Assembly: GCF_000020385.1 (NCBI RefSeq)
Contig: NC_010814.1
Span: forward strand, 1,470,001 to 1,502,000
Origin: Trichlorobacter lovleyi SZ
GTDB taxonomy: Bacteria; Desulfobacterota; Desulfuromonadia; Geobacterales; Pseudopelobacteraceae
Length of the DNA: 32,000 nt
Direction of reading: 5' to 3'
Part shown: positions 8,010 through 28,126 of the stretch, piece after piece
Layout: every line of letters begins with the position of its first letter
Numbering within the stretch: the stretch's first letter is position 1
The notes under the pieces: generated by a model
Database searches by the model: none
Told to the model about the DNA's origin: nothing
Seen by the model: only the letters and a program-made list of their open reading frames with translations
Program-made: the position numbers and the translations under genes

Positions 8010-8346
8010 TTTTTTTGTTGACGGGCAATGCCGGGCTGCTAAGGAGAAACATACATTATTTGAGCCCATCAGAGCTCTCGTCGGAGTAAACCGACGGAAA
8101 ATAAACGAGAAAGGGGGAAAGTAGGCCAACTTTGCAGGATCGTGTGATCAGTGCCGACGACGCCTCTGGCCAGGCGCAAAGGGTGCGAATCGGGGAGATG
8201 TTCCATCCCCGCCTGAACTGATTCAGGATGGAATCTAACGAGCGAGACAGATTGTCGACAGTAACGTCAATGCCCCGACAGCATTTCTACTGTTGCAATT
8301 TGCAACCACAAAACTGAGCTCCACCCGAAAACTATTCCAGCCTAAA

Positions 8347-9156: not shown

Positions 9157-9179
9157 AAGATTTCGCCTCTGGGCTGGCT

Positions 9180-9446: not shown

Positions 9447-9530
9447 GGCAGAATCACCCTCCTTCGTGGTGTAATTTTGCCAGAAAACTCTACTTTTGAG
9501 TGGAGCAATTTACTGGGAGGAGGTCAACTC

Positions 9531-9678
9531 ATGATTGACAGTAATTTACCGTCACCCCGAACTAAGGGGGTAGATCGCGGCATGGCGACCGGTGAAGTCA
9601 CCCTGCCTCTTCTGAGTGCGTTTCAAAAACTCGTTGCTTTGCTTGACAGTCCTGCGGACATTCCAATCCTTGCACCTA
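9531..9678 (+). pseudogene. internal fragment of an AraC-family regulator (AraC_N ligand-binding-domain type)
   Basis: The 49 codons ..GMATGEVTLPLLSAFQKLVALLDSPADIPILAP match the conserved LLRLLDxPxDIxVLAP segment of AraC_N-type regulators as I remember it. The fragment is cut by the IS3 on the left and the IS21 on the right. No N-terminal part or C-terminal HTH is found anywhere nearby. Confidence 0.4.
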
Positions 9679-9744
9679 TGTCAATCGGCATTGAAATTTG
9701 ACCCACCATCGGCGTCCAAAATTGACCCACCTCAGCGGTTGATT

Positions 9745-10509
9745 TTAGTCTGAGTTTCTGGTTTTGATTCTCCAGCTTTCATTTCCTGTTTCGACGATTT
9801 CGCAGTGATGGGTAACCCTGTCCAGAAGTGCCGTGGTCATTTTGCCATCACCGAACACCTGCGGCCATTCTCCAAAGGTCAGGTTAGTGGTAATGATAAG
9901 CGATGTTCTCTCGTACAGCTTTGATATAAGGTGAAACAGCAGCTGTCCTCCAGCCTTTGAGAACGGCAGATAGCCCAGTTCGTCCAGCACAACCAGATCA
10001 AGCCTGCAGAGTGCCTCTGCAAGCTTTCCTCCGCGTCCGCTTAGCTTTTCCTGTTCTAGTTGGTTGACCAGATCCAGCAGGTTGAAGTATCGGCCACGCT
10101 TACCGTTTCTGATCACCTGCCGTGCAATGGCAATGGCCAGATGGGTCTTGCCGGTACCGGTTCCACCTACCAGAATGATATTACTCTTTTCAGTAAGAAA
10201 GCCTCCCTCATACAGCATTCTGACCTGTGTCTCGTTGATCGGTGTATCCGTAAACTCAAAGTGATCCAGGTCCTTCTCTACTGGAAACCTTGCCTGACTC
10301 AGGCGGTAGCGGATACTTCTGATTCTCCGTTCAGCCAGCTCTGCATTAAGCAGCTCAAACAGGATCTTCTCCGGTGTGGCCCGTTGTTTGATGCCTGTGG
10401 CGATCAGCTCGTCACAGGCAGTCTTCATGCCATGCAGCCCAAGGGTCTCCATGGCCTTTTGCAGTTTCTCACGCAGTAGCACAGGCACCTCCGGCAAGCA
10501 GCAGGTCAT
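9745..10509 (-). CDS. istB: IS21-family helper ATPase IstB
   Basis: It has Walker A ([13 protein letters not shown]) and Walker B (LVVLDELGY), the typical IstB length, and sits downstream of and overlapping istA. An alternative GTG start at 10482 is preceded by GGAGG. Confidence 0.9.
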
Positions 10510-11983
10510 ACCGCCTGCAGTCAGCTACAGGCGGTATGATCAAAACCGGCAGTTTTGCTGCAGGATCTGCCGTTGGTGTCGGTTCTTCATCGTTTCGGGA
10601 CAACAGATTAAGCACGACATCCCGACTGATGGTATTGGCTGCCAATGCATCAGTGCATGCCTGTGTTACTGCTTCAATGCCATAGTAGGAGACAACCGCC
10701 AGTATCCCGACAAACTGCCGGTCACCATCACGGTGCTTGGCAAGGGCACTACGGATTTGCTCAATAGATTCCGGCAAATTCCATTCCTTAAACGGTGCAC
10801 CGTTTCTGAGTGCTCCCGGCTTCTTCTTCAGTGCCTCCAGATAGTGCCAGGGATCATAGAAGACCTGATCACGACCAAAGTGCCGTTTGTGGAATCCTAC
10901 GGTTCTGCCGCTCTGGACAAAGGTCAGACGATCAGCATAGGCCCGTACCGTGACCGGGTTGCCAACAGCAGAGACATGGACGCTGTAACGGTTGCGGTCA
11001 AATGAGACCAGGGAGGTAGAAGATACCTTGGCATCGCTTTCCAGATAACCGTCAAACGGAACCGTTACCGTGAGAAGCTGCCGGCGTTCCTCCTTAAACA
11101 GGTCATTGATCGTCAGGAGTGGGTTGTCAGGATGTTTCTGGGTTGCTGCGTAGTCCAGACATTGTTCCTGCAGCCACTGGTTTAGCTCAGAAAGGTTGGT
11201 AAATGTCCGCCGTTTGGCGAAGAAACGCTTGCGCACAAGGCCTACCTGATTCTCTACCTGCCCCTTCTCCCAGCCTGCAGCAGGAGTGCAGGCTATCGGT
11301 TCAAACAGGTAGTGGGAGGCCAGACTCAAAAACCGACGATTGAATACACGATCCTTGCCCATCAGGACTTTGGTTACTACGGTTTTTAGGTTGTCGTAGA
11401 TACCACGCCGACAGGCACCACCAAAGAAGCTGAATGCCTTGATATGAGCATCCAGAACCATCTCCAGGCTCTCACGTGTGTAGGCCACGCAAAATGGCAT
11501 CCGACTGTTACAGAGGCGAAACTGAGCAATCTTGACCTTTACGATGATCCCACCCAACTCAATCTGCTCATAGCTCCAGTCAAACTGAAATGCCTCACCA
11601 GGATCAAAGGATAGCGGAATAAAGGCTGCGGCTACGCCGCCGCCGGTCTCTTTGCGCTGCTGCTGGATGTAACGACGGACGCTGTCATAGCCACCTTCAA
11701 ATCCTTCCCGCTGTAGCGTCTCAAACAATAACTGGGCACTACGACGATGGCGGACTGGCTTTACGGCATCTTCAGACAACAGTCCTTTGAGACGTTCTTC
11801 AAATGCAGCAAGCTTTGGCCTGGGCTGTTCGGTGCGGGTATAAACCTGATCGGTTACGTCACTTCTGATGATTTTCTTGACGGTGTTCTTAGACAGATGA
11901 AACTCACGGGCTATCTGCCTGATTGGTTTCTTGTCCCGGTGGTAAGCCTGGCGGATTTTACGGATGGATTCCACTAGCAGCAT
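10469..11983 (-). CDS. istA: IS21-family transposase IstA
   Basis: The N-terminal HTH is [33 protein letters not shown]. The DDE core region includes FQFDWSYE and the protein is ~500 aa. Confidence 0.9.
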
Positions 11984-12108
11984 CTCCTTTCAAAGCTCCT
12001 CTCTCTGGATGATGCCAAAGAGAATGGAGGAGGTGCTGAGGTGGGTCAATTTTGGACGCCGATTACACCCGAAAGTGGGTCAATATTGCATGCCGATTCA
12101 CAGTTAAG

Positions 12109-12138
12109 GGCCGGTTCTTGCTTGAACCGGCCTTTTTT
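12109..12138 (+). terminator. rho-independent terminator stranded just outside the IS21 right end
   Basis: GGCCGGTTC-TTGCTT-GAACCGGCC followed by TTTTTT. No intact gene is left upstream for it to terminate. Confidence 0.6.
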
Positions 12139-12291
12139 CTGCCGATTACCCTCCCTGAAAAACGCACCCAAAATCACATTTTTGTAGGATTGTGCATTTT
12201 TTTTGTTGCTCTGTGTATTTAACAATCACCAACAGGAGCCTAAGATTCAAACATATGAGGACAATTAAAAACGTTAACAAGGAGATAAGAA

Positions 12292-13443
12292 ATGCATAAT
12301 TTCACTTTTTACAACACCACCAGAATTGAATTTGGCAAGGGCAAAGAAACTAATATTGGAGAATACGTCAAGAGCTTCGGCGTCGGTAATGTTCTGGTTC
12401 TGTATGGTTCAGAGCGGATCAAGAAGGATGGACTGTTCGGTCGAGTCACTGCTTCCCTTGAAGGCAAAGACATCAGCTTCAAAGCGCTGGGTGGCGTCGT
12501 TAGCAACCCGGTTATCAGTCTGGTGCGGGATGCTGTCAAGGTCGTCAAGAAGCACAACCTGCAAGGGATTGTGGCCGTTGGCGGCGGCTCGGTTGCCGAT
12601 TCTGCCAAGGCCATTGCTGCTGGCGCCAAGTATGACGGCGATGTCTGGGACTTTTTTATCGGCAAAGCCATTGTCAAAGATGCCATCCCCGTTTTCACTA
12701 TCATGACGTTAGCTGCCACTGGCAGTGAAATGAATCCCTATGGCGTGGTGACTAACGAGGAAACGCAGCAGAAATATAACCTCGGAGGGCCAGCGCTCTA
12801 CCCGAAGGTGTCCGCCATCAACCCGGAGTTAATGGCCACTGTTACACCCGACTATCTGGCCTATTCCGCTGTCGATATTTTTGCCCACTGCCTTGACCTC
12901 TATTTCACTGCCAAGGTGTTCCCGGAATTTACTGCCGCTCTGATTGAAAATATCCTGACAACCGTGATGCGCACCACCGATGTGCTGATGATGAACCCAG
13001 ATGATTATAACGCAAGAGGAGAATTCGCCTGGGCCTCGACCATGGCCCTCAATGGCAATACCTTTGTCGGCGTTGAGGGCAACTCCTTTGACACCCACAT
13101 GATTGAGCATGCCATGGGCGGACTGTACAACGTGCCTCACGGTGCCGGGCTCGCCGTCGTTCTTCCTGCCTGGATGAAGTCGATCAAAAACCAGATGCCG
13201 CAGCGCTTTGAACGCTTTGCAGAGAAGATGTTTGGTGAATCCGATGCCGAGGCAGGGATTGAAAAGCTTACCAAATGGTTTAGCGCAATTGGGGCACCGG
13301 TGACCTTTGCACAAGCAGGTCTTTCTGCAGACGCTGTTGATCCCATTGCTGAGAATGCGTTTGGCATTGCAAAGCTCTGGAAAATGGATCAGCTCTATCC
13401 TCAGCAGAGGATTGCTGAAATCCTCAAGCTGGCTGTGAAGTAA
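12292..13443 (+). CDS. iron-containing (group III) alcohol dehydrogenase, YqhD/BdhA-like aldehyde reductase
   Basis: FYNTTRIEFGKGK...VLVLYGSERIKKDGL...AVGGGSVADSAKAIA...HxxxH region (THMIEHAMGGLYNVPHGAGLAV). AAGGAG RBS. Confidence 0.85.
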   Translation: MHNFTFYNTTRIEFGKGKETNIGEYVKSFGVGNVLVLYGSERIKKDGLFGRVTASLEGKDISFKALGGVVSNPVISLVRDAVKVVKKHNLQGIVAVGGGSVADSAKAIAAGAKYDGDVWDFFIGKAIVKDAIPVFTIMTLAATGSEMNPYGVVTNEETQQKYNLGGPALYPKVSAINPELMATVTPDYLAYSAVDIFAHCLDLYFTAKVFPEFTAALIENILTTVMRTTDVLMMNPDDYNARGEFAWASTMALNGNTFVGVEGNSFDTHMIEHAMGGLYNVPHGAGLAVVLPAWMKSIKNQMPQRFERFAEKMFGESDAEAGIEKLTKWFSAIGAPVTFAQAGLSADAVDPIAENAFGIAKLWKMDQLYPQQRIAEILKLAVK

Positions 13444-13464
13444 CAAACAGAAAAGAGAACAGAA

Positions 13465-14505
13465 ATGAAGATACGCATTAAGTCCCTTACAACATCGTTA
13501 CTATGTCTGTCCCTGATCATCCCCGGCGTTGCTTTTGCAGCCAAAAAGCAGGCATGGGACAAAATATTTACCAAGAGCGATAAAGTCGACCACGAGAAGG
13601 TATCCTATAAAAACCGCTTTGGCATTACCGTGTCTGCTGACAAGTATCAGCCAAAGGGGTTGGATAAATCCCAAAAACATCCTGCCATAGTCATTGGCAC
13701 TCCTTACGGTGGGGTCAAAGAGCAGGGCGCTGGTATTTATGCTCAAGCAATGGCAGAACGCGGCTTTGTTACCATTGCTTTCGACGAGTCCTACAATGGT
13801 GAGAGTGGTGGTAAGCCCCGGCGAGTTTCGTCGCCGGATATTTTCGTTGAAGACTTCAGCGCAGGGGTTGACTACTTAGGCTCTCTTGCGTTTGTTGACA
13901 GAGATAGAATTGGCGCCATCGGTATATGTGGCAGTGGCGCATTCGCCATTACTGCAGCCCAGGTTGACCATCGAATCAAAGCGATTGCAACGGCGAGTAT
14001 GTACGACATGAGCCGCTTTATGCGCAATGGCTGGAAAGACGGAATGACTGATGAGCAGCGTAACAAAACGCTTGATCAGCTTGCAGTGCAGCGTTGGAAA
14101 GACGTTGATGGCCGAACCCCCGAACTGACACCGGCCTTCCCCAGCAAACCTGTTGACAAAATCCCGGAAGGACTCGACCCGATCACCAGTGAGTTCTTCG
14201 AATATTACGCCATGAAACGGGGGCATCATCCGAATTCTATCGCTGCGTTCACCAAGACGAGTGCCATGTCTTTTATGAATTTCCCATTGATGGACCACAT
14301 CAAATCCATCTCGCCACGCCCTATCCTGTTCATCATGGGCGAAAAGGCGCATTCCCGCTACTTCACGGAGGATGCATATACTATGGCCGCTGAACCCAAG
14401 GAGCTTTATATCGTACCGGGGGCGCGGCATATCGATCTCTATGATAGAATAGACATGATCCCGTTCGACAAACTGACGTCATTTTTTACCAAGGCATTGA
14501 AGTAA
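13465..14505 (+). CDS. exported alpha/beta-fold hydrolase (dienelactone-hydrolase-like, Cys in nucleophile elbow)
   Basis: The signal peptide is MKIRIKSLTTSLLCLSLIIPGVAFA/AKK. The nucleophile elbow GICGSG (TGT at 13927-13929) resembles the GxCxGG of dienelactone hydrolases. A C-terminal GARHIDLYD motif carries the likely His. Confidence 0.7.
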   Translation: MKIRIKSLTTSLLCLSLIIPGVAFAAKKQAWDKIFTKSDKVDHEKVSYKNRFGITVSADKYQPKGLDKSQKHPAIVIGTPYGGVKEQGAGIYAQAMAERGFVTIAFDESYNGESGGKPRRVSSPDIFVEDFSAGVDYLGSLAFVDRDRIGAIGICGSGAFAITAAQVDHRIKAIATASMYDMSRFMRNGWKDGMTDEQRNKTLDQLAVQRWKDVDGRTPELTPAFPSKPVDKIPEGLDPITSEFFEYYAMKRGHHPNSIAAFTKTSAMSFMNFPLMDHIKSISPRPILFIMGEKAHSRYFTEDAYTMAAEPKELYIVPGARHIDLYDRIDMIPFDKLTSFFTKALK

Positions 14506-14641
14506 GGGTATGTAGAGGAGACTGAAATGACAGAGGATCTTAAAAATAGTGTGATTTTTGACCGGGGAGAACTCAATCCTTACGGCAAATATTTTACCGG
14601 CACCAGCTATCTTAATATGTTGAAGTCTCGAAGGGGTCGTT

Positions 14642-14941
14642 ATGGGAAACGTCACCTTCGAACCGGGCTGCATTAACAATTGGCATATCCACAAAGCGGA
14701 TAAGGGTGGCGGCCAAATCCTCTTGGTGACCGGTGGACGTGGCTGGTATCAGGAGGAGGGCAAAGACGCTCAAGAGTTGCATACTGGAGATGTCGTCCAT
14801 ATTCCTGCAGGCGTCAAACACTGGCACGGGGCTGCAAAAGACAGTTGGTTTGTGCACATCTCCGTTGAAGTGCCGGGTGAAAACAAGTCAAACGAATGGC
14901 TCGAACCGGTTGACCAAGTCTCTTACAGCAAGTTGAAGTAG
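14642..14941 (+). CDS. cupin-domain protein (apparently 5'-frameshifted; see finding)
   Basis: GNVTFEPGCINNWHIHKADKGGGQILLVTGGRGWYQEEGK...GDVVHIPAGVKHWHGA is the cupin 2 pattern. A well-initiated ORF (GAGGAG + ATG 14527, MTEDLKNSVIFDRGELNPYGKYFTGTSYLNMLKS) encodes what looks like the family N-terminus. It is in a different frame and stops at 14676. Confidence 0.7.
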   Translation: MGNVTFEPGCINNWHIHKADKGGGQILLVTGGRGWYQEEGKDAQELHTGDVVHIPAGVKHWHGAAKDSWFVHISVEVPGENKSNEWLEPVDQVSYSKLK

Positions 14942-14996
14942 TGAGCGTTAGGCCGCAGGCGCAGACACTCATAAGAGTAGTGGAGGAGATACCATC

Positions 14997-15851
14997 ATGA
15001 TTTTACAGGAAACCTATACGCTCTCAAATGGCGTTGAAATTCCCAAGCTGGGCCTTGGCACCTGGCTTATCGACAAGGCAGATGCAAAACGGGCGGTGCA
15101 GGATGCCATAAATATCGGCTACCGTCATATTGATACCGCTCAGGATTATTTCAATGAAGCAGAGGTCGCTGCGGGGATCAAAGACTGCGGCATCAGCCGC
15201 AACGAAATCTTTCTGACCACCAAGCTTTCTGCACGGTACAAATCGTATCAAGACTCCGTAACTGCGATCGATGGCTCTCTACAACTCATGGGGCTTGATT
15301 ATGTCGATTTGATGATTATTCATAGCCCGCAACCCTGGGATAAATTTGGTCAAAGCGATCGTTTTTTTGCAGGCAATCAGGATGCCTGGCGTGCGCTTGA
15401 GGAAGCCCATAAGGCCGGAAAGATTCGAGCCATCGGTTTATCGAACTTCCAGCAACAGGATATCGACAATATCCTGAAATCCTGTTCAACTGTACCGGTG
15501 GTCAACCAGATCCTAGCCCATGTGAGCAATACGCCCTATGAACTGATCAAGTATTCTCAGGAGCAAGGGATGCTCATCGAGGCCTATTCTCCAGTTGGGC
15601 ACGGAGAACTCCTTAAAAACAGGCAAATAGTTGAGATGGCTGAAAAGTATGGCGTTTCAGTGCCGCAACTGTGCATTCGTTATTCCTTGCAGCTCAATCT
15701 TCTGCCCTTGCCCAAGACCGCAAACCCAGACCACATGAAGAACAATGCGGACGTAGATTTCGAGATTTCTGAAGAGGATATGGCAACCTTGAAGAGTATG
15801 GAAAAGATCAAAGATTATGGTGACGCCAGCATATTCCCTGTATACAAGTGA
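14997..15851 (+). CDS. aldo/keto reductase (DkgA/YtbE-like)
   Basis: IPKLGLGTWLIDK...GYRHIDTAQDYFNEAEVA...DLMIIHSPQPW...IGLSNF...IEAYSPVGHG are the AKR signature segments. GGAGGAG RBS. Confidence 0.85.
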   Translation: MILQETYTLSNGVEIPKLGLGTWLIDKADAKRAVQDAINIGYRHIDTAQDYFNEAEVAAGIKDCGISRNEIFLTTKLSARYKSYQDSVTAIDGSLQLMGLDYVDLMIIHSPQPWDKFGQSDRFFAGNQDAWRALEEAHKAGKIRAIGLSNFQQQDIDNILKSCSTVPVVNQILAHVSNTPYELIKYSQEQGMLIEAYSPVGHGELLKNRQIVEMAEKYGVSVPQLCIRYSLQLNLLPLPKTANPDHMKNNADVDFEISEEDMATLKSMEKIKDYGDASIFPVYK

Positions 15852-15879
15852 TGCTGGCATTTAATAGTTAGATTCAATC

Positions 15880-15911
15880 AAAGCCACCCTTTTCCAGGAA
15901 AGGGTGGCTTT
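15880..15911. terminator. rho-independent terminator (13-bp stem) closing the reductase operon
   Basis: AAAGCCACCCTTT-TCCAGG-AAAGGGTGGCTTT followed by T-rich sequence. Confidence 0.7.
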
Positions 15912-16004
15912 ACTTATTGTCATGATCGATTGCACGCGAAGTTGCAACTAAAGCGGCAGATCTGGCGTCTTAGTGTGAAAGTTTTTACCCTTCAACTACT
16001 GCTT

Positions 16005-16035
16005 TACAAAAATGAGCGCCGCTCGAGGCGGCGCT
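16005..16035 (-). terminator. rho-independent terminator of the sigma54 activator gene
   Basis: The minus strand reads AGCGCCGCC-TCGA-GCGGCGCT followed by CATTTTTGT, 12 nt after the stop at 16047. Confidence 0.6.
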
Positions 16036-16046
16036 GGTGGAGTACA

Positions 16047-17591
16047 TTACGGGTTTCCACCTTCTTTTCGATTCACCCCGAGCTTTGCCATCCGGCTCCT
16101 TAATGTGCTTGGATTGATACGAAGCAACTCTGCCGCGCCACCGGTTCCGTTAATCTTTCCCTTTGTGAATGTAATGACTTTTCTGATGTGATGGGCCATG
16201 GCCTCGTCGAGGCTTTCAGGTTTTTCGAGTTCCTGATTCACATTTGATGAAGGTGGCTCTTTCTGGGGAGATAAGGGGGGCAACAGCGATTCAAAGCTAA
16301 GAGAACCTCCTCTGTGGCGGATTAGTTCACGTTCCACAATATTTTGCAGTTCCCGCACGTTTCCAGGCCAGTCGCAGATCATGAGGCGCTCCAAAGCGCC
16401 CAATGCAATGGCTGGCACCTCCGTCAGTCCAAGTTCCCTGCTCTTTACCTGCACCAAGTGCCTAGCCAGTGCCGGGATATCCTCACGGCGCTGCCTTAGT
16501 GGGGGGATAAAAATAGGGAAGACATTTATTCGAAACCAAAGATCTTCTCGAAAATGACCTTCCGTGATCATTTGTTCAAGATTCCTGTTGGTTGCAGCGA
16601 TGATCCTGATGTTGATCGGAATAGGTTTGGCCCCTCCCACTCGTTCAAGCTCGCGGTTCTGTAGCACCCGCAACAGTTTTACCTGAGCCTGGAGCGGGAG
16701 TTCCCCAATCTCGTCCAAAAAAAGTGTCCCGCCGTTAGCACGCTCAAAACGCCCTCGTTTTTCCGCAACTGCCCCGGTAAAGGCCCCCTTTTCGTGCCCG
16801 AAAAGCTCGCTGTCGATTAGTGTATCTGCGATGGCTCCGCAATTGACCTTGACAAAGGGACCGCTACTACGCGTCGATCCATAGTGGATGGCGTTTGCAA
16901 TGACTTCTTTGCCGACGCCGGTCTCTCCAAGCAGCAGAACGGTATTGTTGAGTGGAGCCACTTGCCGGACCTGTTCCATCACGTTACGCAGGCCGCTCTG
17001 CTCTCCCACGATGTCGCCGCCATCAGAACCGGGAGAGAGTTCCCTTTGCAGGAAACGATTGTCATCAAGAAGTACATCTCGCAAGTGCAGCAACTCCTCG
17101 TGAGCAAGGGCGTTTGATAAGGCGATGGCTATCGGTTCAGCAACCAGGCGAATCAGGTCCGCATGTTCCTTACGGTAAACTCTGTCACCATTAGCCCTTA
17201 GAATGAGAACCCCAACCTTTTTGCCCTCGATGTGCAATGGCAGTGATAAATCTGATTTCCCTTCGTTTTTGGTGAGTGCGGCAATTTTTCTCACTATGGG
17301 ATCTTTGTTTGTGGAGTCTACGATTACCGGTTCGTGGACACTTTGAGCCCAAAACCAGACCTCCTCAGGAAGCGGTATGATCTCTGCCGGCTTGGGGGAA
17401 ACATCGACGGTCACATCAGCAATGCGTCGTATGGCTCCCAATTGCAAGTCGAGGATATCGAGAAAGATCTCATCGACCGGCAGAACTCCTCGTAGGTATA
17501 AGAAGCAGCGTTGAATCGCGATATTGATATCCAGGCTGCTGCAAAACCTTAGCGTTACTTCGCGAAAGAATTCTTCATGTTTAACTTTCAT
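16047..17591 (-). CDS. sigma54-dependent transcriptional activator (GAF sensor - AAA+ - Fis-type HTH)
   Basis: The GAF-like N-terminus includes ...[42 protein letters not shown]. The AAA+ core shows [24 protein letters not shown] and [12 protein letters not shown]. The C-terminal HTH is [34 protein letters not shown] lies before ATG at 17591 (MKVKHEEFF). Confidence 0.9.
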
Positions 17592-17605
17592 GGGACACGC
17601 TCCTC

Positions 17606-17617
17606 TCGATATATCGA
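17606..17617. promoter_or_regulatory. perfect palindrome TCGATATATCGA (candidate activator binding site / autoregulatory site)
   Basis: It lies about 110 bp upstream of the -24 element and a few nt upstream of the SD of the activator gene. It shares the ATCGA core with 17660-17671 and with GTATCGAAAT at 17631-17640. Confidence 0.35.
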
Positions 17618-17659
17618 TAAAATACATACGGTATCGAAATGTCACAACAAAAATATCTA

Positions 17660-17671
17660 AATATCGATATT
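17660..17671. promoter_or_regulatory. perfect palindrome AATATCGATATT (candidate UAS for the sigma54 activator)
   Basis: Its centre is about 55 bp upstream of the -24 GG of the sigma54 promoter. Confidence 0.35.
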
Positions 17672-17718
17672 AGCATTGCTTTTCAATCGCAACAAATTGA
17701 TTTTATTTAATTTATTTT

Positions 17719-17735
17719 TTGGCACACTTTGCGCA
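17719..17735 (+). promoter_or_regulatory. sigma54 (-24/-12) promoter
   Basis: TTGGCACACTTTGCGCA has GG at 17721-22 and GC at 17733-34 with the canonical 10-nt spacing. It is very close to the glnAp2-type TTGGCACAGATTTCGCT. It lies 35 nt upstream of the azoR start and is divergent from a sigma54 activator gene. Confidence 0.75.
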
Positions 17736-17769
17736 GACATACAAAGTAAACTGCAAAAAGGAGGCAACC

Positions 17770-18402
17770 ATGGCCAACATTCTTTACATTACCTGTAACC
17801 TGAAACCTCGCGAACAATCGCGTAGTCTCACCATCGGTAATGAATTCCTGAAAAGGTACTCGGAACGTCATCCGGAAGACAGGATAGACTTTCTGGACCT
17901 CTACCGCGACCCAATCCAGCGCATTGATACCGATGTGCTCAACGGCTGGGGAAAGCTGCGCACCGGTGCTTCCTTTGATTTGTTATCAGAGGACGAAGTG
18001 CGCAAAATCGGCAGGATTGGAGCACTTGCAGACCAGTTCGTGGCCACAGACAAGTACGTTTTTGTAACGCCAATGTGGAACCTGGGATTCCCGGCGGAGC
18101 TGAAGATGTATATCGATACGGTTTGCGTGGTTGGGAAGACCTTTACCTACACAGAGAGCGGAGCGGTAGGACTTTTGCGTGGCATGGGCAAGAAGTGCCT
18201 CCATATCCATTCCTGCGGCGGATTTCACTGCGGCTCCGCCGATGACCACTCGGTACCCTATCTGAAGTCGGTGATGAACTTCATGGGGATTGAAGATTTC
18301 AGGTCGGTTGTGGTGGAAGGGATGGACGCGCTGCCGCATAGAGCAGAAGAATTCATGGACAAGGCGCTGGCAGAAAGCCGGGAAGCAGCCGCCCTGTTTT
18401 GA
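17770..18402 (+). CDS. azoR: FMN-dependent NADH-azoreductase / flavodoxin-like quinone reductase
   Basis: [30 protein letters not shown]...[34 protein letters not shown] is the AzoR/AcpD family pattern. AAGGAGG lies 5 nt before ATG at 17770. The TTG start at 17719 in the track is the promoter itself. Confidence 0.8.
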
Positions 18403-18488
18403 CATAGGGCGAACTAGCTGAATACTACTGGGAACAACCTCCCACCCCGATGGAGTGCTTTCATCTTGTTAATTTACAGGAGGAATAC

Positions 18489-20678
18489 ATGGAAGAGATT
18501 CGTAGAAGTTATTGCGGTCTTTGTCATCCGCGATGCGGCACCTTGTTACACATGGACAACAACCAGGTTGTAAAAGTTACGGGCGATCCACAGCACCCAA
18601 TCTCTCGTGGAGCAATCTGCGAACGCGGCCGATTTATGGTCGAACACCTCTATCATCCGCAGCGCTTGAACTACCCCTTGAAAAGAATAGGCAAGAAGGG
18701 AGAGGGGCGCTGGCAGCGCATAAGCTGGGATCAGGCATTGGACGAGGTGGCGGAAAAATTGGCCAGCTTGAAAGAGAAGCATGGGGCAGAGACCCTGGCT
18801 TTTACCCACGGCACCAAGCGCACCTACCACTGGGACTGCCGGCGCTTCTTCAACCTATTCGGTTCGCCCAACACCTGCGGGGTCAATACCATCTGCATGT
18901 GCCCAAGCTACGCCACCGAATATGCCACCTACGGCGGTATGGTCATGGGGAGTGAGGTCATGGGTGCTCGATGTGTGGTTCTGTGGGGCAATAATGCCTC
19001 AAATTCCAGCCCGCTGTACCTTTCAGCTCACCTTGCCAAGGCGCGAAAAAATGGCGCTAAGCTGATCGTCATCGACCCGCGCCGGATTAAAGAGGCGGAA
19101 CAAGCCGACCTCTGGTTGCAGGTTCGACCGGGCACCGATCTGGCGCTAATGCTAGGCTGGATTCGCCTGATTATCGCCGAAGAGCTGTACGACCGAGAAT
19201 TCGTTGCCAACTGGACGGTTGGCTTCGATGAACTTAAAGCTGCGGTCGAAGCCTACACACCGGAGAAGGTCGCCGAAATCACCTCGGTGTCGGCGGAGTT
19301 GATCGTTCAGGCAGCCCGCATGTACGCCACCACCGGGCCGGCCGTCATCCCCTTTGGCTTTGGACTGGACAAGCAAGGTATCAATGCCACTCAGTGCGCA
19401 CGCGCCCGGGCGATTCTGAGGGCAATTACCGGCAATCTCGAAGTCTCTGGCGGTGAAAACTTCAGCATGACCGGTGAGGTTGGTAAAATCCATGACTGGG
19501 AGTACCTAGAGCTCAACGATACTCTGCCAGCCAGCCAGAGGGCCAAGCAGCTCGGTGCGAAGCAATATCCCATCTTCGGTTTCCCCGGTTGGGAAAGAAA
19601 CTCGGCTGCCAACAAAAAGTTGCCCGAGGGCTATGTCGCTCCACCCGAGGCTTGGCACTCCAACCTGGCCCATGCCCGCGAGGTGATGAATGCTATCATC
19701 ACCGGCAAACCCTATCCGGTGACCGCGGCAATTACCCTTGCCAACAATCCGCTGCTCGCTCTGCCGAATACCAAACGCGTATTCAAGGCCCTGCAGGCCC
19801 TTGAGCTCTATGTGGTGGTCGATTACTTCATGACACCGTCGGCTGCTATGGCGGATTATGTTTTCCCGGCTGCCTCAACGGTTGAGACTCCCGAACTCTG
19901 GCTGACCGGAGGTTTCTGTGTTGCCTGTCCACAAGCGATGGAGCCACTTTACGAGCGTCGCAACAGTTATGACTTTTACCGTGGGCTAGCCATGCGTCTC
20001 GGGCAAGAACAGTATTGGCCCTGGGAGACTGTGGAGGAGGTCTATGACCACTGCCTGGAACCGCTCGGTCTAAACTTTAAACAGTTACAAAATCAGCCTG
20101 GAATTTTTGGTGCGCGGGAATATCGGCGCTATGAGAAATTCGGCTTCGGCACCCCCTCCGGCAAGGTCGAGCTGAAATCTTCAATCTTTGAAGAGCTGGG
20201 AAAGGACGCCCTACCGCAGTATCGCGAACCGGTCTGGAGTCCCAAAGCCGATCCGACGCTGACAGAGGAGTATCCGCTGATCCTGATTACCGGCAGCCGC
20301 TATATGCCGATATATCACTCCGAGCATCGCCAGATCGAAGCGGCACGTAAAAAGATGCCAGATCCACTGGTCTCAATTCATCCAGTGACAGCCGAAAGGT
20401 TGGGCCTGGCCGAAGGCGACTGGGCGGTAATCTCGACCCCGCTTGCCTCGATCCGCCAGCGCGTAAAACTGTCTGACGCCATGGACCCTGCTATGGTTGA
20501 TATTCAGCACTCCTGGTGGTTCCCGGAGCGTGATCCAAAACTTCCGGAGCTCTTTGGCGTGTTCGAATCGAACGCTAACATGCTCTGCCCGGACGATCCA
20601 GAATTCTGCAGTCCGGAAATCGGTAGCTGGCCCCATTCCGCTTTGATGTGTCGGGTTGAGAAGGAGAAGCAATCATGA
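18489..20678 (+). CDS. cytoplasmic molybdopterin/tungstopterin (bis-PGD, MopB) enzyme, acetylene-hydratase-like
   Basis: AGGAGG RBS and ATG at 18489. There is no twin-arginine signal. The N-terminal [4Fe-4S] motif is C9-x2-C12-x3-C16...C44. MopB segments include RISWDQALDEVAEKL, KLIVIDPRRIKEAEQADLWLQVRPGTDLAL and the candidate metal-ligand region NTICMCPS. The C-terminal barrel region includes PLILITGSR...VSIHPVTAERLGLAEGDWAVI. Confidence 0.85.
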   Translation: MEEIRRSYCGLCHPRCGTLLHMDNNQVVKVTGDPQHPISRGAICERGRFMVEHLYHPQRLNYPLKRIGKKGEGRWQRISWDQALDEVAEKLASLKEKHGAETLAFTHGTKRTYHWDCRRFFNLFGSPNTCGVNTICMCPSYATEYATYGGMVMGSEVMGARCVVLWGNNASNSSPLYLSAHLAKARKNGAKLIVIDPRRIKEAEQADLWLQVRPGTDLALMLGWIRLIIAEELYDREFVANWTVGFDELKAAVEAYTPEKVAEITSVSAELIVQAARMYATTGPAVIPFGFGLDKQGINATQCARARAILRAITGNLEVSGGENFSMTGEVGKIHDWEYLELNDTLPASQRAKQLGAKQYPIFGFPGWERNSAANKKLPEGYVAPPEAWHSNLAHAREVMNAIITGKPYPVTAAITLANNPLLALPNTKRVFKALQALELYVVVDYFMTPSAAMADYVFPAASTVETPELWLTGGFCVACPQAMEPLYERRNSYDFYRGLAMRLGQEQYWPWETVEEVYDHCLEPLGLNFKQLQNQPGIFGAREYRRYEKFGFGTPSGKVELKSSIFEELGKDALPQYREPVWSPKADPTLTEEYPLILITGSRYMPIYHSEHRQIEAARKKMPDPLVSIHPVTAERLGLAEGDWAVISTPLASIRQRVKLSDAMDPAMVDIQHSWWFPERDPKLPELFGVFESNANMLCPDDPEFCSPEIGSWPHSALMCRVEKEKQS

Positions 20679-21520
20679 TTGAAAAATCAATTATTGAAGA
20701 CACCAACACTTTACTGGGATATCTCGGTTTGGATGAAGAGCCCATCGGCGTCTATTACGCTGACACTAAACCAGAAAATGCCTTTGGTCCCAAACCTGGT
20801 CCAATCATTACCCGCGAACTGGAAGAACAAGGCCAGATCGACATGCAGGCGGTTTTTCAAAAATTCTCCTGCGTTATCGGAAACATCTGGCTGGCAAGGA
20901 AGAAAAAGGGGACTGCCTATATCTCCACTGAAGAGTATGGGTGTCCTGGTGGTTCTTTCTACTGCTCCATGATGAAGCCCAATCTCAGATTCATTGAGCA
21001 CTATGTAACCACAGGGTTTGAAGGAACCCCCATACATGGTGAGCGTTATTTGCCATCACCTGAGGCTATGAGGAAATTCTTGGATACGGTCAACCCCCGA
21101 AAGGCTCCGGCCAAATATTGCCTCTTCAAGCCGTTGTCACTCTTTACCGGCAGTGAGGTGCCTGAGTTTGTGATATTTTTTGCTCGGCCCGAAGTGTTGA
21201 GTGGTCTTTTCACCCACACCATGTTTACGACCGGGGAGTTTGACAGTGTCGTTTCGCCATTCGGTGCAGGTTGCACCAACGTTATATCCTGGCCTCTGCA
21301 TTATCAGGAACGGGGCGTGGAAAAAGCCGTACTGGGCGGTTTTGACCCTTCTGCACGGAAGTATATGAAAACTGATGAACTAACCTTCACAGTCCCTTGG
21401 ACTCTGTATCAAAAGATGTTGAAGGCCATGCCTGAATCAATTTTTAGTGTTGACGGTGAATGGAAAACCGTACGCAAAAAAATAAATCATAGTGCCAAGA
21501 CGTGGGGAGAAAACCATTAA
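20675..21520 (+). CDS. DUF169-family protein
   Basis: LGLDEEPIGVYYAD...C-containing core...PEFVIFFARPEVLSGL...FGAGCTNV...DELTFTVP matches my memory of DUF169/COG2043 conserved blocks. Its start overlaps the upstream stop (ATGA at 20675-20678), suggesting translational coupling. Confidence 0.65.
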   Translation: MIEKSIIEDTNTLLGYLGLDEEPIGVYYADTKPENAFGPKPGPIITRELEEQGQIDMQAVFQKFSCVIGNIWLARKKKGTAYISTEEYGCPGGSFYCSMMKPNLRFIEHYVTTGFEGTPIHGERYLPSPEAMRKFLDTVNPRKAPAKYCLFKPLSLFTGSEVPEFVIFFARPEVLSGLFTHTMFTTGEFDSVVSPFGAGCTNVISWPLHYQERGVEKAVLGGFDPSARKYMKTDELTFTVPWTLYQKMLKAMPESIFSVDGEWKTVRKKINHSAKTWGENH

Positions 21521-21570
21521 TTTATATTCGCCAGATTTCTGAGAGTTTTGCCAATACGAGTTTTCTCTAC

Positions 21571-21608
21571 GAAAAGTCCCTTTAACTTTCTGGTCAAAGG
21601 GACTTTTC
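21571..21608 (+). terminator. hairpin terminator after the DUF169 gene
   Basis: GAAAAGTCCCTTT-(12-nt loop)-AAAGGGACTTTTC. The T-run is partly inside the stem, so this is a weaker call. Confidence 0.45.
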
Positions 21609-22533: not shown

Positions 22534-23559
22534 ATGCAACCAGAGTTGGGTCATGTTGTGATGATTCAAGCAGATCAGGTATTGACTGCAATGCTGCAGA
22601 TGGGCTGGCAAGTAGGTAACAAGCCGCCCGGCTATGCTGCTATTCAAGCCCGCCTGCGCCAGCTGTTCGGCAACGGCGGAGACGGCAACCGGATGCGTGA
22701 ACTGCGAGAGGCAGCCATTCGTATGGCAACTGGACAGCCTGCCAGTGATGACGACCTGGGTCATGCCGACTTGCCGCCGCTGCCTGAGGAGATTCAGCAG
22801 GAGTTGCAGGCCATGGCAATCGCTTTTGAAGAGCAACTGACACGTCTGGATCATCGCTTGGCTCTATGCCTCGACAGTGCCTTGTCCGATATCAGATCTG
22901 AGGCCAGGATCAAGATTAACACGGTCAAACGCGACGCAGAGGAACGCTTGGCAGTTGCACATGAAGAACTCGACCAAGCTTTGACCGACTTACAGGTATC
23001 AGGTGCAACCCTCAGCGCTTTACAGGAAGAACTCACGAACACTCGAGAACTCGCTGCCAAAACATCTGGTCGTATCGAGGCCATGGAGCATGAGCAATCT
23101 GCCAAGACAGCCCGAATCAGCAGTCTAGAGAATGAACTGACAACGGCACACGCTGAAATAGCTACCTCAACGGGCCGGTTGGAAACTCTGCAGTCCGATC
23201 TACAAACAAGGATCAAGCACATAGAGATGCTTGATGCACGCCTGGCTGATGCCAGAGAGTCTGCTACAACGGCCATATCCAGAGCCCAGTCACTTGAAAA
23301 TGAGATGAAGAGCGGGGCTGAACAGGTGCAATGTCTTCAGGATGAACTTACATCCAACAAGGAGTCATCGGCTAGAAATTCTGGGCGTTTGGAGGTGCTT
23401 GAGCAGGAGCTGGCAGCCAAAACAGGCCGTATCATCGACCTGGAGGCCACGTTAACTGAGGCTACCACTGCCATGGCCACCGCCACCGGGAGGGCCGAGG
23501 TGTTGGAGCAGGAGTTGACAGCGGCCAGGGCCCATACCAGGAAGGGAGCCAAACCATGA
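22534..23559 (+). CDS. coiled-coil protein with KfrA_N-like N-terminal DNA-binding region and internal ~35-aa repeats
   Basis: GGGAGGAGG RBS. The N-terminus is ..ADQVLTAMLQMGWQVGNKPPGYAAIQARLRQLFG... About 230 aa of heptad-rich sequence follow, with a recurring TGRxExLEQELxAKTxRIxxLExxLTxA motif (SGRIEAMEHEQ, TGRLETLQSDL, SGRLEVLEQEL, TGRAEVLEQEL). Confidence 0.6.
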   Translation: MQPELGHVVMIQADQVLTAMLQMGWQVGNKPPGYAAIQARLRQLFGNGGDGNRMRELREAAIRMATGQPASDDDLGHADLPPLPEEIQQELQAMAIAFEEQLTRLDHRLALCLDSALSDIRSEARIKINTVKRDAEERLAVAHEELDQALTDLQVSGATLSALQEELTNTRELAAKTSGRIEAMEHEQSAKTARISSLENELTTAHAEIATSTGRLETLQSDLQTRIKHIEMLDARLADARESATTAISRAQSLENEMKSGAEQVQCLQDELTSNKESSARNSGRLEVLEQELAAKTGRIIDLEATLTEATTAMATATGRAEVLEQELTAARAHTRKGAKP

Positions 23560-24040: not shown

Positions 24041-24242
24041 CCCCCTGTGGGGTGTCCCCTCTGGCCAGGGGTTGTAGCCTTTTGACAGGCTAGCGCGTCA
24101 ATGACGCGGTGAACAATCTGACAATATTTTGTCAGCAAGAAAAAATTCTGACTTTTTTATCCGGAGTCTGTGAATCCCAACTATAAAGCGCATTGAATGC
24201 TATTGATCGTTTGTGGGGCGTATGTTATTTTTGCTATACAAA

Positions 24243-24258
24243 TTGCGAACATTTTTGG
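24243..24258 (+). repeat. 16-bp repeat TTGCGAACATTTTTGG (partner of 4917-4932)
   Basis: It is identical to 4917-4932, in the same orientation, and lies 55 nt inside the right att repeat. Confidence 0.45.
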
Positions 24259-24306: not shown

Positions 24307-24332
24307 GGTTCGTTCCCAGTAGCGCGCACCAA
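24307..24332 (+). repeat. right att repeat: tRNA 3'-end copy (19 bp identical, 26 bp with 2 mismatches)
   Basis: GGTTCGTTCCCAGTAGCGCGCACCAA compares with GGTTCAATCCCAGTAGCGCGCACCAA at 4841-4866. The T-stem 5' strand is not intact here, so it is not a functional tRNA. Confidence 0.75.
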
Positions 24333-25007: not shown

Positions 25008-25040
25008 ATGTTTGTGTGCAGCAAGGAAGGAAGGTCATTT

Positions 25041-28000
25041 ATGACTAACAAATTTCCAGTAAACCATCTGATTGTTTTGTTTGTACTCTGGATAGTTGCC
25101 CTTTTTAGTGCCGTTCCGGCGGTTGCATCCACAACATTGGATACTGCTTTTAATCCGGTGCTGTCTAAAGCCGGTCAGATAACCGGTATTGTTCCGCTGG
25201 TAAACGGCAAGGTCGTGGTGATTGGAAGTTTCTCCTCCATCAGCGGGGTAGCGCGTAAAAATATTGCGGTGTTGAATCCGGATGGCAGTGTTGATACCAG
25301 CTTTCAGCTGGATAGCCGGATACCGTCCGACATGATCTATGCTGCTGCAGTGCAGAGTGATGGCAAGATTCTGATCGGTGGTCAAATATCGATTATAGGT
25401 GCAACAGAATCGCAAAACTATCTGTTTCGCGTAAGCAGCACCGGTGTCTGGGACGAGACCTTTAAGCCGGGGCGGTATGTCTATACACCAGGTGTTACCT
25501 ATGGTCTGGATGGTGCTGTCAGGGCTATTACCGTGGATGGCAATGGCAAGATTCTGGTGGGGGGCGATTTTACTGCACCAAAGAATCATATTGTTCGGCT
25601 TAACCCCTTGGATGGTTCGGAAGATACCTCGTTTAATCCCGGAACAGGGGCCGATGGGACGGTTACCCATATTGCCCGGCAGTCCACCGGCCATATTATT
25701 ATTGGCGGCTCCTTTGCTACCGTGAATGGTACTGCCAAGGCCAAGGTGGCACGTCTGTCCGCAACAGGCTCCTTGGATGCCGCTTTTGGCACCGGGCTTT
25801 ATGGTGGCAGTCTGCAGGCCCTGGCGGTGCAGTCCGATGACAAGGTGCTGCTGGGCGGCAGTTTTTTCGGGTTGAACGGCACCTATGATCTGCCCAAGCT
25901 GATTCGGACTTCTGCCGATGGCGTGCTGGATGCGAGCTTTACGCAATTGGTGCCCTATTACGATAATCTAGGGGAGATTCAGTATACCGCTGCAGCCAAC
26001 TATTTTCAGGCCATTACCAGTCTTTTGGTTTTGCCGGACAAGATTGTAGTAGGCGGCTGGTATAGCTCCATTATCATGAGCGGAAACCCGCTTTACCATG
26101 ATGCCAGGATTTTTATCCTTGAAGCGGGTAATGGAGCCTATACGAGTTTGATGACCTTTAAAAGCGGGCCGACGAATACCGATGGCTCTACCCACTCGGA
26201 TGTCTTTGCCCTGGGAAAACGCAGTGACGGCCAACCCTTGGCTGGTGGCAGTTTTACCCAGAATGATTCCAATGAAGACTACTACTATGGCCTTTGCTTG
26301 ATCTCCAGCACCACTTGGCAGCCTGTCACTACCTATAAGCCGGTGGTGGGTGGCCAGCCTAATGTGAAGTCACTGGCCCTGCAAGCCGATGGCAAGCTGC
26401 TGGCAGCCGGCGATTTCTACCTGGTAGGCAGCACCCCTGAAAACGGTCTGGCCCGTTTCAGCACCACCGGTACGCTGGATACTACACTGGTTACTCCGCT
26501 TGTTAAAGGCGGGACAATCAATAGTGTGCTGGCACGCAGCGACGGCAAGCTGATTGTAGGTGGTTATTTTTATTATATATCTGACACTAGCGTATATCGT
26601 GATATAGCCTTGCTCAGTGCTGGTGGAGTTTTTGAATCAGGAAACGCGGTGGGGATGCACAACGCTCTGGCCCTAACGACAGACAACAAAGTGCTGACCG
26701 CCTTGTATCATAACCCTGGCATTAAGGGATTGAACGCTGATTTAACGGTTGATTCAAGTTTTGTCCCGGGTACCGGAATACCCAATAGTCAGACAGAGTA
26801 TGTCAATACTGTAGTGGTTCAACCTGATGGCAAGATTCTCGTGGGGGGCTCGTTTTCAAGTTTCAGTGGTGCTGTGCGGCAAAACATTGTGCGGCTGAAT
26901 AGTGATGGCAGTATTGATAATACCTTTGCGTCTCCTGTTTTTACCGTTTTTTACGGCCAGAGTGAGGTGTATGCAATAGCGGTGCAGCCTGACGGCAAGA
27001 TCCTGCTGGCCGGGCGCTTCTCTACGGTGGGCGGCGTTGCCAGCCCTACCGTGGTGCGACTGAACAGCAACGGCAGTGTGGATACCTCATTTCAGGCACC
27101 GTTCGGAGACTCCGGTTCCACTGCCTACGCACTGGCCCTGCAGCCAGATGGCAGGATACTGGTGGGCGGGAGTATGCAGATCGTTGAAGGAGAAAGCATC
27201 TATAATAGTCTGGTGCGGCTGTATCCCAACGGCAGTCGGGATAGCTCCTTTGGTAGTTCCATCACCGGCACCGTCAAGTCGATTGTGCTGAACGGCACGC
27301 AGATTGTGGCGGGTGGTACCATCGAGGCAGTGGACGGCACAGCCCGCCAAGGTCTGGCACGCTTCACTACGACTCCGGAATATCTTTTGACCGTAACAAG
27401 ATCGAGCGTAGCTGGTGGGAGCATTACCGCCAGCACCGGCACCTTCGGCTGGAGTGGAACGGTCGGTATGGCGGCTTATAACAGTGGAACCAGTGTAACG
27501 CTGACCGCCCAGGCGGGGGCGGGCTACATCTTCAGCGGCTGGTCCGGCGAGGGCTGCAGCGGTACCGGCAGCTGTACGGTTGCCATGTCTGCAGCACGTA
27601 GTGTCACCGCTACGTTTACTGCAATACCCCAAGTGGCCCTGACGGTAACACTGGGAGGCAGTGGCGGCGGTTCAGTCATCAGTACTCCTGCAGGTATCGA
27701 TTGTCCCGCTTCCAGCTGTTCCGGCCAGTTTGCTAGCGGTAGTACGGTCTCACTCACCGCTGTCCCCAACGCCAGCTCAACCTTTGATGGCTGGATTGGT
27801 TGTCAAACTACGAATGGTACGGTTTGTGGTGTGATCATGAATACTCCTAGAGAGGTGACTCCGCTCTTTAACTCAGCAAAAGCCCAGATCGGGGGTGTCG
27901 GTTATGCCACCCTGGCAGAGGCGTTTGCCACCAACTTTGGTACAACGCCGATACTCCTGCTCGACGGTAACCTTGCCGAGTCGTTGACCGTTACCAAGGC

Positions 28001-28124: not shown

Positions 28125-28126
28125 CC

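Follow-up and report, generated by a model that had tools for sequence, protein, structure and literature searches.

Gene content of the operon

The 32,000-nt stretch of Trichlorobacter lovleyi SZ analysed here (NC_010814.1, positions 1,470,001-1,502,000; hereafter the window, whose own positions are used below) contains an operon of three genes on the forward strand, encoding an AzoR-like reductase, a molybdenum- or tungsten-dependent (Mo/W) enzyme referred to as MopB, and a DUF169 protein, with the gene for a sigma-54 activator diverging from it. Genes were taken from a list of open reading frames (ORFs) with their translations, and domains were assigned by Pfam and NCBIfam scans. A previous sequence-only reading of this DNA had placed the same four genes at these positions, and the ORFs, the Pfam domains and an ATGA overlap between the last two genes agree with it; both PF02596 and PF02525, the families it had named for the DUF169 and AzoR-like proteins, were confirmed.

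The activator gene (16047-17591, minus strand) encodes a sigma-54 enhancer-binding protein of 514 aa. This includes a GAF sensor (GAF_2, 41.6 bits), an AAA+ domain (Sigma54_activat, 240 bits, with AAA_lid_14) in which the GAFTGA loop is readable from the translation, and a C-terminal Fis-type helix-turn-helix domain (HTH_8, 20.3 bits, slightly under the cutoff of 22). The NCBIfam models for NifA, FhlA and NorR also match this protein, all of them under their cutoffs, and for this reason it is regarded as an orphan GAF activator.

The first gene of the operon (17770-18402, plus strand), preceded by an AGGAGG ribosome-binding site, encodes a protein of 210 aa assigned from Pfam and PDB matches as a flavin mononucleotide (FMN)-dependent NADH azo/quinone reductase. 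It contains Flavodoxin_2 (PF02525, 137.5 bits), and its residues 1-209 match PDB entries 6jxn, 6qu0, 3w78 and 2hpv with E = 1e-49 to 1e-61 (best 3.5e-61), the best matches being FMN-dependent NADH-azoreductases over the full length. Because the score for the NCBIfam subfamily PRK13556 is below the threshold (145.7 bits vs a cutoff of 188), the protein is considered a divergent family member.

The second gene (18489-20678, plus strand) encodes MopB, a bis-molybdopterin guanine dinucleotide (Mo or W) enzyme of 729 aa with an N-terminal [4Fe-4S] site, as indicated by its Pfam domains (Molybdop_Fe4S4, Molybdopterin and Molydop_binding), PDB matches and orthologues. The start at 18489 is consistent with the orthologues (MxEIRRSYCGLCHPRCG). 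The cysteine motif of the cluster begins at residue 9 and therefore leaves no space for a twin-arginine translocation (Tat) signal, and no partner subunit genes, either for a 4Fe-4S protein or for a membrane anchor, were found in the window or conserved over the 80 loci described below. The earlier description of a cytoplasmic bis-pyranopterin guanine dinucleotide enzyme whose only [4Fe-4S] site is N-terminal, and which lacks both a Tat signal and partner genes, is thus borne out.

The third gene (20675-21520, plus strand) encodes the DUF169 protein (PF02596, 139.6 bits vs a cutoff of 27), which has 281 aa and whose ATG overlaps the TGA of mopB as ATGA. A stem-loop at 21570-21608 (plus strand; dG -23.5 kcal/mol, z = -7.2) closes the operon and corresponds to the terminal hairpin reported previously. 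On the other side, the terminator scan found a terminator-like hairpin after the activator gene (16015-16035, minus strand), facing another one (15880-15911, plus strand) that closes the upstream aldo-keto reductase (AKR) operon.

Predicted sigma-54 promoter and putative activator sites

For comparison, one genome per species was scanned for the YCGLCHPR motif, giving 80 loci with a MopB relative; these were searched with the window proteins, and all neighbouring ORFs were clustered. Among the locus names used below, L081 corresponds to Desulfuromonas sp. KJ2020, L033 to Desulfosarcina cetonica and L031 to delta proteobacterium NaphS2. Orthologues of the activator, with 63-65% identity, lie divergently upstream of MopB in L001, L015, L031 and L033.

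The proposed sigma-54 promoter, TGGCACACTTTGCGCA (17720-17735, plus strand), reads TGGCAC-N5-GCGCA and has the GG-N10-GC spacing. It had previously been called a near-consensus -24/-12 promoter; however, it has two mismatches to TGGCAC-N5-TTGCW, both in the -12 box (GCGCA, not TTGCW), and the TTTGC that was probably counted there has the wrong spacing. The window holds 23 sites with two mismatches vs 21 expected by chance, so that near-consensus is an overstatement and the match on its own is not significant. What stands is the promoter itself, by pattern and comparison. The element TGGCAY-N7-GCW was observed at most 1 kb upstream of MopB in 6/6 loci with a divergent activator, orthologous or paralogous (the window, L001, L015, L031, L033 and L035), vs 1/72 of the others, and in all six TGGCA(C/T)-N7-GC(A/T) precedes the operon's first gene by 40-140 nt. 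Additionally, L022 has a -24/-12-like element, TGGCATAATTGTGGCA (9858-9873), upstream of MopB and no recognised adjacent activator, which may be encoded elsewhere or have been missed.

The palindrome TGATATTTCA/TGAAATATCA is present in 2-3 copies between the activator gene and the promoter in L001, L015, L031 and L033, and the background of TGATATTTCA-type palindromes is about 1 per kb. Related copies in the window, TCGATATATCGA (17607-17618), CGAAATGTCA (17635-17644) and ATATCGATAT (17661-17670), are probable binding sites of the activator, a function suggested by their likeness to that palindrome. On this comparative evidence, the predicted sigma-54 promoter and its putative upstream activator sites are here taken as real.

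Relatives and active site of the Mo/W enzyme

The best PDB match of MopB is the acetylene hydratase (AH) of Pelobacter/Syntrophotalea acetylenica (2e7z, E = 4e-131), with 36.8% identity. Identity is 35% to the AH-like protein of Desulfococcus oleovorans, 34% to the Gordonibacter catechol dehydroxylase Cldh and likewise to a Gordonibacter homologue, and 31.5% to Dodh, which is also a Gordonibacter catechol dehydroxylase; Dadh gave partial matches only. The dehydroxylase and AH sequences used for comparison come from source data published with Maini Rekdal et al. 2020 (PMC7028382), where AH and Cldh are reported to share 26% identity; by this measure the MopB clade lies between the two. In a simple neighbour-joining distance tree (18 taxa, Dadh as the outgroup), the MopB family was sister to AH in 298/300 bootstrap replicates and grouped with the dehydroxylases in 2/300, and the Gordonibacter enzymes fell outside the grouping of the MopB family with AH. 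The enzyme, sister to AH and outside the dehydroxylases, does not fall inside a clade of known function, in keeping with the sequence-only reading, which had called the module uncharacterised.

MopB and AH have in common the fold, a length of about 730 aa, the cytoplasmic location, a single N-terminal four-cysteine [4Fe-4S] cluster (ligands Cys9, Cys12, Cys16 and Cys44 in MopB), the cysteine metal ligand (Cys136, aligned with Cys141 of AH) and Trp472. However, the catalytic Asp13 of AH, adjacent to the cluster ligand Cys12, is replaced by His13, which is invariant in 23/23 family members (CGLCHPRCG), whereas AH and the bona fide AH-like A8ZZM3_DESOH have C-D at this position. The residues of the hydrophobic substrate ring of AH, Ile14, Ile113, Ile142, Trp179, Trp293, Trp472 and Phe611, correspond to Pro14, Gly108, Met137, Pro175, Phe289, Trp471 and Tyr609 in MopB; only Trp472 is strictly kept in the family, Trp293 becomes Phe, Trp or Tyr, and Lys48 is also changed, to Arg. 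Unlike AH, moreover, MopB bears dehydroxylase-type motifs in several loops. At least six motifs are common to MopB, Cldh, Dodh and the Gordonibacter homologue and not to AH, among C-H, GT-x-R, C(M/Y)xP, WG-x-N...SNP, HSE(H/Q)RQ, HGWWFPE and LFGVF-x-N-x-N. As in Cldh and Dodh, C-H follows the second cluster cysteine and C(M/Y)xP surrounds the metal-ligand cysteine.

MopB differs from Cldh and Dodh in having all four cluster cysteines, the first of which both of those enzymes lack, in having no adjacent 4Fe-4S partner, in branching with AH, and in its hosts, which are Desulfobacterota rather than gut Actinobacteria. In Maini Rekdal et al. 2020 (PMC7028382), 4Fe-4S partners are stated for Dodh and Hcdh; enzymes of the Eggerthella type have a membrane anchor as well. 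Putative dehydroxylase homologues have been reported in Desulfobacula, Geobacter and Desulfomonile, and many uncharacterised AH/dehydroxylase homologues in environmental anaerobes (eLife 2020 paper).

MopB is therefore not an acetylene hydratase by membership, because the catalytic Asp13 is missing and the hydrophobic ring is not retained, nor is it a catechol dehydroxylase by membership, because of its position in the tree and the missing partner subunit. The earlier label of acetylene-hydratase-like is appropriate for the overall similarity; however, it is misleading for the chemistry, with the catalytic Asp and most of the ring absent. Judged from these sequence features, MopB represents an uncharacterised third clade of the AH/dehydroxylase branch. 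On the simplest reading, AH would be a derived lineage, and the MopB clade would have kept an ancestral dehydroxylase-like active site with a complete four-cysteine cluster. The members of the clade, with 62-95% identity, are found over Desulfuromonadales, Desulfobacterales, Desulfovibrionales, Deferribacterales and Terriglobia, where they are annotated just as molybdopterin oxidoreductase; a literature search found no paper on the clade.

Conservation of the neighbourhood

The sequence-only reading had treated azoR, mopB and the DUF169 gene as a candidate pathway unit that did not match any described pathway. A literature search found no description of the trio as a pathway, in agreement with the second part of this claim; conservation as a unit was not observed. 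The arrangement of activator, AzoR, MopB and DUF169 recurs in full only in L033 among the 80 loci, with a near copy in L031, which has the activator, AzoR, MopB, a CrtC/lipocalin-like protein and a distant DUF169. L001 and L015 have the activator followed by MopB without AzoR, L035 has the activator, a distant DUF169 and then MopB, and most MopB loci lack AzoR. The order activator-AzoR-MopB is nevertheless present in D. cetonica and NaphS2 at 64-72% protein identity, and this recurrence indicates that it is either old or has arisen more than once.

When the loci were grouped by MopB identity (39 loci with at least 68% and 42 loci with 62-67%), DUF169 was found within 7 kb in 11/39 vs 0/42, and an adjacent divergent TetR gene in 12/39 vs 0/42. 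At least one accessory detoxification gene, counted within 7 kb among cupin, iron-containing alcohol dehydrogenase (Fe-ADH), alpha/beta hydrolase, AKR, carboxymuconolactone decarboxylase (CMD), cyclophilin-like, FMN reductase, tautomerase, metallo-beta-lactamase (MBL)-fold and AzoR-like genes, was present in 17/39 vs 2/42. In the group with higher identity, DUF169 is usually encoded directly upstream of MopB, often behind a MarR gene. DUF169 and MopB genes stand side by side repeatedly, in either order and with DUF169 members of three subgroups, including the distant paralogues of L031 and L035, which argues for a functional link between the two proteins. The conserved unit is MopB, often but not necessarily with DUF169, under interchangeable regulators (TetR, MarR, AraC or the sigma-54 activator). 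By the annotation of its neighbours, MopB of these sulfate- and metal-reducing bacteria is surrounded by genes for carbonyl and quinone detoxification that vary from locus to locus, a gene set for which no description was found in the literature search.

Two further observations concern NaphS2. This strain has at least four MopB copies in three loci, L006, L026 (two copies) and L031. In L031, the CrtC/lipocalin-like protein, of the carotenoid-hydratase family, is encoded between MopB and the distant DUF169 paralogue (12285-14134).

Features of the DUF169 protein

The orthologues of the DUF169 protein have 72-91% identity, a constant length of 281 aa and the invariant residues Cys66, Cys90, Cys149 and Cys200, four cysteines that could bind a metal or a cluster. 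Neither the single sequence nor a profile of DUF169 retrieved a relative from the PDB sequences. The AlphaFold model is moderate (mean predicted local distance difference test score, pLDDT, 70.8), and Foldseek gave no match with E < 0.001 in PDB or BFVD. In the literature that mentions DUF169, no function is given.

Orthologues also occur without an adjacent MopB. In Desulfosarcina widdelii, DUF169 is next to a MarR gene in L083, and the MopB of this organism is located elsewhere, behind TetR (L007). Desulfuromonas sp. AOP6 likewise has DUF169 without MopB, within its syntenic cluster (L082), and in Desulfoferula DUF169 stands alone (L084). These three loci argue against the view, rejected here, that MopB needs DUF169 as a subunit or chaperone.

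As a separate observation, the MarR-DUF169 pair of L083 lies beside a one-strand cluster (3875-14846) with genes for a short-chain dehydrogenase/reductase, two cyclophilin-like proteins, an MBL-fold protein, a tautomerase, Flavodoxin_2, CMD, cupin, AKR and an alpha/beta hydrolase. The gene families of this cluster recur near MopB at many loci.

Regulator swap and the upstream detoxification cluster

The closest named relative of MopB, with 95% amino acid identity, is that of Desulfuromonas sp. KJ2020. Its locus is chromosomal, flanked by uvrC and malQ, and free of mobile genes. In one direction it encodes cyclophilin-like, CMD and cupin proteins, and in the other an AraC_N regulator, Fe-ADH, alpha/beta hydrolase, cupin, AKR, MarR, MopB and DUF169. 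The window aligns to this locus from Fe-ADH to AKR (12099-15893, 80% nucleotide identity), over MopB (18477-20674, 88.6%) and over DUF169 (20661-21513, 80%), and the segment between them, 15894-18476, with the activator, the promoter and azoR, stands where KJ2020 has the MarR gene. The breakpoints are located inside the terminator hairpin after the AKR gene and 12 nt before the MopB start codon. Because homology to KJ2020 flanks the segment with the activator and azoR, the operon of the window is a regulator-swap variant of a larger cluster.

The context of the operon is consequently wider than the module previously delimited from the activator to DUF169, since it includes the upstream genes at 12292-15851 (plus strand), identified by synteny with KJ2020. 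These encode a YqhD-like Fe-ADH, a secreted alpha/beta hydrolase with a signal peptide, a cupin and a DkgA-like AKR. A 156-bp remnant of a YqhC-like AraC gene is present at 9525-9680 and matches the central part of the L081 AraC gene with 81% nucleotide identity; in the window, the operon of Fe-ADH, hydrolase, cupin and AKR is probably left without its activator.

In Escherichia coli, the yqhC-yqhD-dkgA locus is a reactive-aldehyde response, which senses and reduces reactive aldehydes. The upstream genes of the window, together with the intact AraC gene of KJ2020 (L081, 4593-9325), match this locus in gene order and orientation, with identities of 35% between the KJ2020 AraC and YqhC, 31% between the Fe-ADH of the window and YqhD, and 31% between the AKR and DkgA. 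Unlike the E. coli locus, the Desulfuromonas cluster adds the secreted alpha/beta hydrolase, the cupin, a second regulator, the Mo/W enzyme and DUF169, and the AraC gene of the window is wrecked by insertion sequences (IS). By analogy, the upstream cluster looks like the counterpart of this aldehyde response in an anaerobe.

Probable mobile island and other features of the window

A 26-nt direct repeat, with copies at 4841-4866 (left copy, plus strand) and 24307-24332 that are 24/26 identical, resembles the T-arm, acceptor stem and CCA of a tRNA 3' end, and a second direct repeat of 27 nt is located at 4906-4932 and 24232-24258. The copies of both pairs are about 19.5 kb apart. They enclose the detoxification cluster and the operon together with IS3, IS21, a resolvase gene at 21816 and an integrase-like gene that adjoins the left copy. 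An intact tRNA was found neither by ARAGORN nor by an Rfam scan. The repeats are probably the attachment (att) sites of an integrative island, and the earlier remark that the operon is cargo of a mobile island is supported, because the tRNA-like repeats bracket the integrase-like gene and the resolvase.

The AraC remnant lies between the two insertion sequences, adjoining the IS3 transposase gene (8347-9156). The IS21 copy (istA/istB) has perfect 29-bp terminal inverted repeats (9708-9736 and 12035-12063) and occupies the position of AraC in KJ2020.

After the resolvase gene, positions 22534-23559 encode a protein of 341 aa with repetitive, coiled-coil-like units (...LE.EL...A.TGR...) and no confident Pfam match. 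Outside the island, the region 25008-31079 is a secretion or pilus locus, which encodes a protein of 1038 aa carrying seven DUF5122 beta-propeller repeats as well as InlB-type B-repeats, followed by genes of the type II secretion system (T2SS-F and T2SS-E/MshE-type); its internal DNA repeats are the families D1 and D2 of the repeat search.

Proposed function and alternatives

Here it is proposed that the operon is an inducible module which detoxifies an aromatic, quinoid or unsaturated electrophile in the cytoplasm. This general picture, a real operon with a role in detoxification, is given a probability of about 0.5, and the specific chemistry is rated far below it. The analysis shows the gene content, the conservation of the promoter, the regulator swap, the neighbourhood counts and the differences from the AH active site; from these we infer the inducer class, the reaction and the electron donor as follows. 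A small electrophile of these types would bind the GAF domain of the activator, a sensing role that would belong to TetR, MarR or AraC at other loci. The activator, on AT-rich palindromes about 60-110 bp upstream, would remodel the sigma-54 RNA polymerase at the promoter at 17720, and transcription would proceed through azoR, mopB and the DUF169 gene to the hairpin at 21570-21608. AzoR would reduce quinone- or azo-type electrophiles using NADH, and the Mo/W enzyme would convert the same compound or a related aromatic, quinoid or unsaturated one, probably by reduction or oxygen-atom chemistry as in its dehydroxylase relatives and not by acetylene hydration. A general electron donor of the cytoplasm (ferredoxin or flavodoxin) would feed MopB by way of the enzyme's own [4Fe-4S] cluster, and DUF169, as a frequent and non-obligate companion, would assist in some way. 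The operon is one regulatory version of a modular Desulfobacterota gene set, in which the same enzyme is found under TetR, MarR, AraC or sigma-54 control and has aldehyde and quinone detoxification genes beside it.

A comparable response exists in Bacillus subtilis, where azoreductases, a carboxylesterase and dioxygenases respond to catechol, hydroquinone and quinones under the control of two repressors, the MarR-type MhqR and YodB. The likeness lies in the combination of azoreductase and carboxylesterase/alpha-beta-hydrolase genes with MarR-type regulators (azoR1, azoR2 and mhqD, among others); however, the Bacillus regulons are not known to include a Mo/W enzyme, DUF169 or sigma-54 control, and the organism is aerobic.

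Several points weigh against a detoxification operon with redox chemistry. With respect to transcription, the stem-loop at 21570-21608 has no clean U-tract and was not detected by the terminator scan. The azoR-mopB spacer also contains a possible sigma-70-type promoter, TTGACA-16-AATACT (18399-18426, plus strand; 10/12 consensus match), which could drive mopB and the DUF169 gene without the activator; sigma-70-like sites in the region are no more numerous than in the shuffled expectation. Because the trio is rare, at 2-3 of 81 loci, co-transcription of azoR and mopB may be a mere by-product of the regulator swap. With respect to chemistry, the tree groups the MopB clade with AH and not with the dehydroxylases, the motifs shared with the dehydroxylases may be ancestral and of little bearing on the reaction, and the lack of a conserved electron-donor gene nearby would also fit a non-redox enzyme like AH. 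Detoxification neighbours are all but absent at the loci of lower identity (2/42), with none at 62-66% identity, and no record of a substrate, an inducer or expression was found for any family member.

A bolder form of the detoxification proposal is tentative, and we consider it a good deal less probable than the general picture. It states that the CGLCHPRCG clade has a new activity, being a stand-alone cytoplasmic enzyme that would neutralise reactive aromatic, quinoid or unsaturated carbonyl compounds in anaerobes, with DUF169 as its dedicated helper. The clade would then be neither an alkyne hydratase nor a respiratory dehydroxylase, and DUF169 would act, e.g., in electron or substrate delivery or in maturation.

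Of the explanations that compete with detoxification, the one that survives best, though it is unlikely, is that the three genes are functionally unlinked, the replacement of MarR by a cassette with the activator and azoR having placed azoR before mopB, and that each product has its own substrates. The exact break of KJ2020 homology at the cassette borders (15893 and 18477) is consistent with this, as are the rarity of the trio, the lack of AzoR at most loci, the activator placed to drive MopB without AzoR in L001 and L015, and the occurrence of DUF169 on its own in L082-L084. The recurrence of activator-AzoR-MopB in D. cetonica and NaphS2 at just 64-72% protein identity argues against it, and so does the adjacency of DUF169 and MopB with different paralogues and in both gene orders.

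Somewhat less probable still is a catabolic or respiratory role, in which MopB would reductively dehydroxylate hydroxylated aromatics to support growth, as happens in Eggerthella and Gordonibacter, and not to remove toxic compounds. The active-site motifs common with Cldh and Dodh, the aromatic degraders among the hosts (NaphS2 and Desulfosarcina species) and the homologues reported in Desulfobacula, Geobacter and Desulfomonile (eLife 2020 paper) would fit such an enzyme. However, MopB has no Tat signal and, unlike the characterised dehydroxylases (PMC7028382), no gene for a 4Fe-4S partner or membrane anchor; its neighbours are stress-type genes and one-component regulators instead of catabolic operons, and the clade is not inside the dehydroxylases in the tree.

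Lower yet, and improbable in our view, stands a true hydratase of acetylene or of a substituted alkyne, whose aldehyde or ketone product would be reduced by the neighbouring Fe-ADH and AKR. The sister position to AH, which is also the best PDB match, and the monomeric, cytoplasmic enzyme with a single [4Fe-4S] cluster, as in AH, speak for it, together with the lack of an electron-transfer partner encoded nearby, the aldehyde reductase genes directly upstream in the window and in L081, and the CrtC-like hydratase/lipocalin gene within the NaphS2 operon. Against these stands the active site, in which the Asp13 of AH, reportedly required in mutagenesis of that enzyme, is replaced by an invariant His, and 5/7 residues of the hydrophobic ring differ, with Gly and Pro at two of these positions; C-D is retained in bona fide AH-like sequences, e.g., A8ZZM3_DESOH.

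A respiratory reductase of the Psr/Phs type is ruled out, since the polysulfide/thiosulfate reductases PsrA/PhsA (PDB 2vpw, Thermus), the second-best structural relatives (E = 1.4e-84), which share the R-C-G ending of the cluster motif, are Tat-exported with PsrB/PsrC partners, and MopB has neither a Tat signal nor partner genes.

Implications

The existence of such AH/dehydroxylase homologues is already known in outline (eLife paper), and none of the present findings overturns current understanding. What is new here is the tightly conserved stand-alone clade with its His13 signature, its modular regulation, and its link to DUF169 and to a yqhCD-dkgA-like cluster. The MopB clade bridges a non-redox hydratase and the reductive catechol dehydroxylases, and its active site may show how the switch between them evolved. 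The four kinds of ligand-sensing regulators are ready-made biosensors for the inducer and thence the substrate, which makes the family a good target for substrate discovery, and the neighbourhood gives a first genomic handle on DUF169. If the reading of a new activity is true, it would give both families their first function and define a new regulon for electrophile stress in anaerobes. Should the substrate be a toxicant of the quinone, catechol or aldehyde type, the enzyme would be a metal-dependent arm of electrophile defence in anaerobes, and such a defence, if true, would bear on sediment biogeochemistry, on the fate of pollutants and on the biocide tolerance of sulfate reducers.

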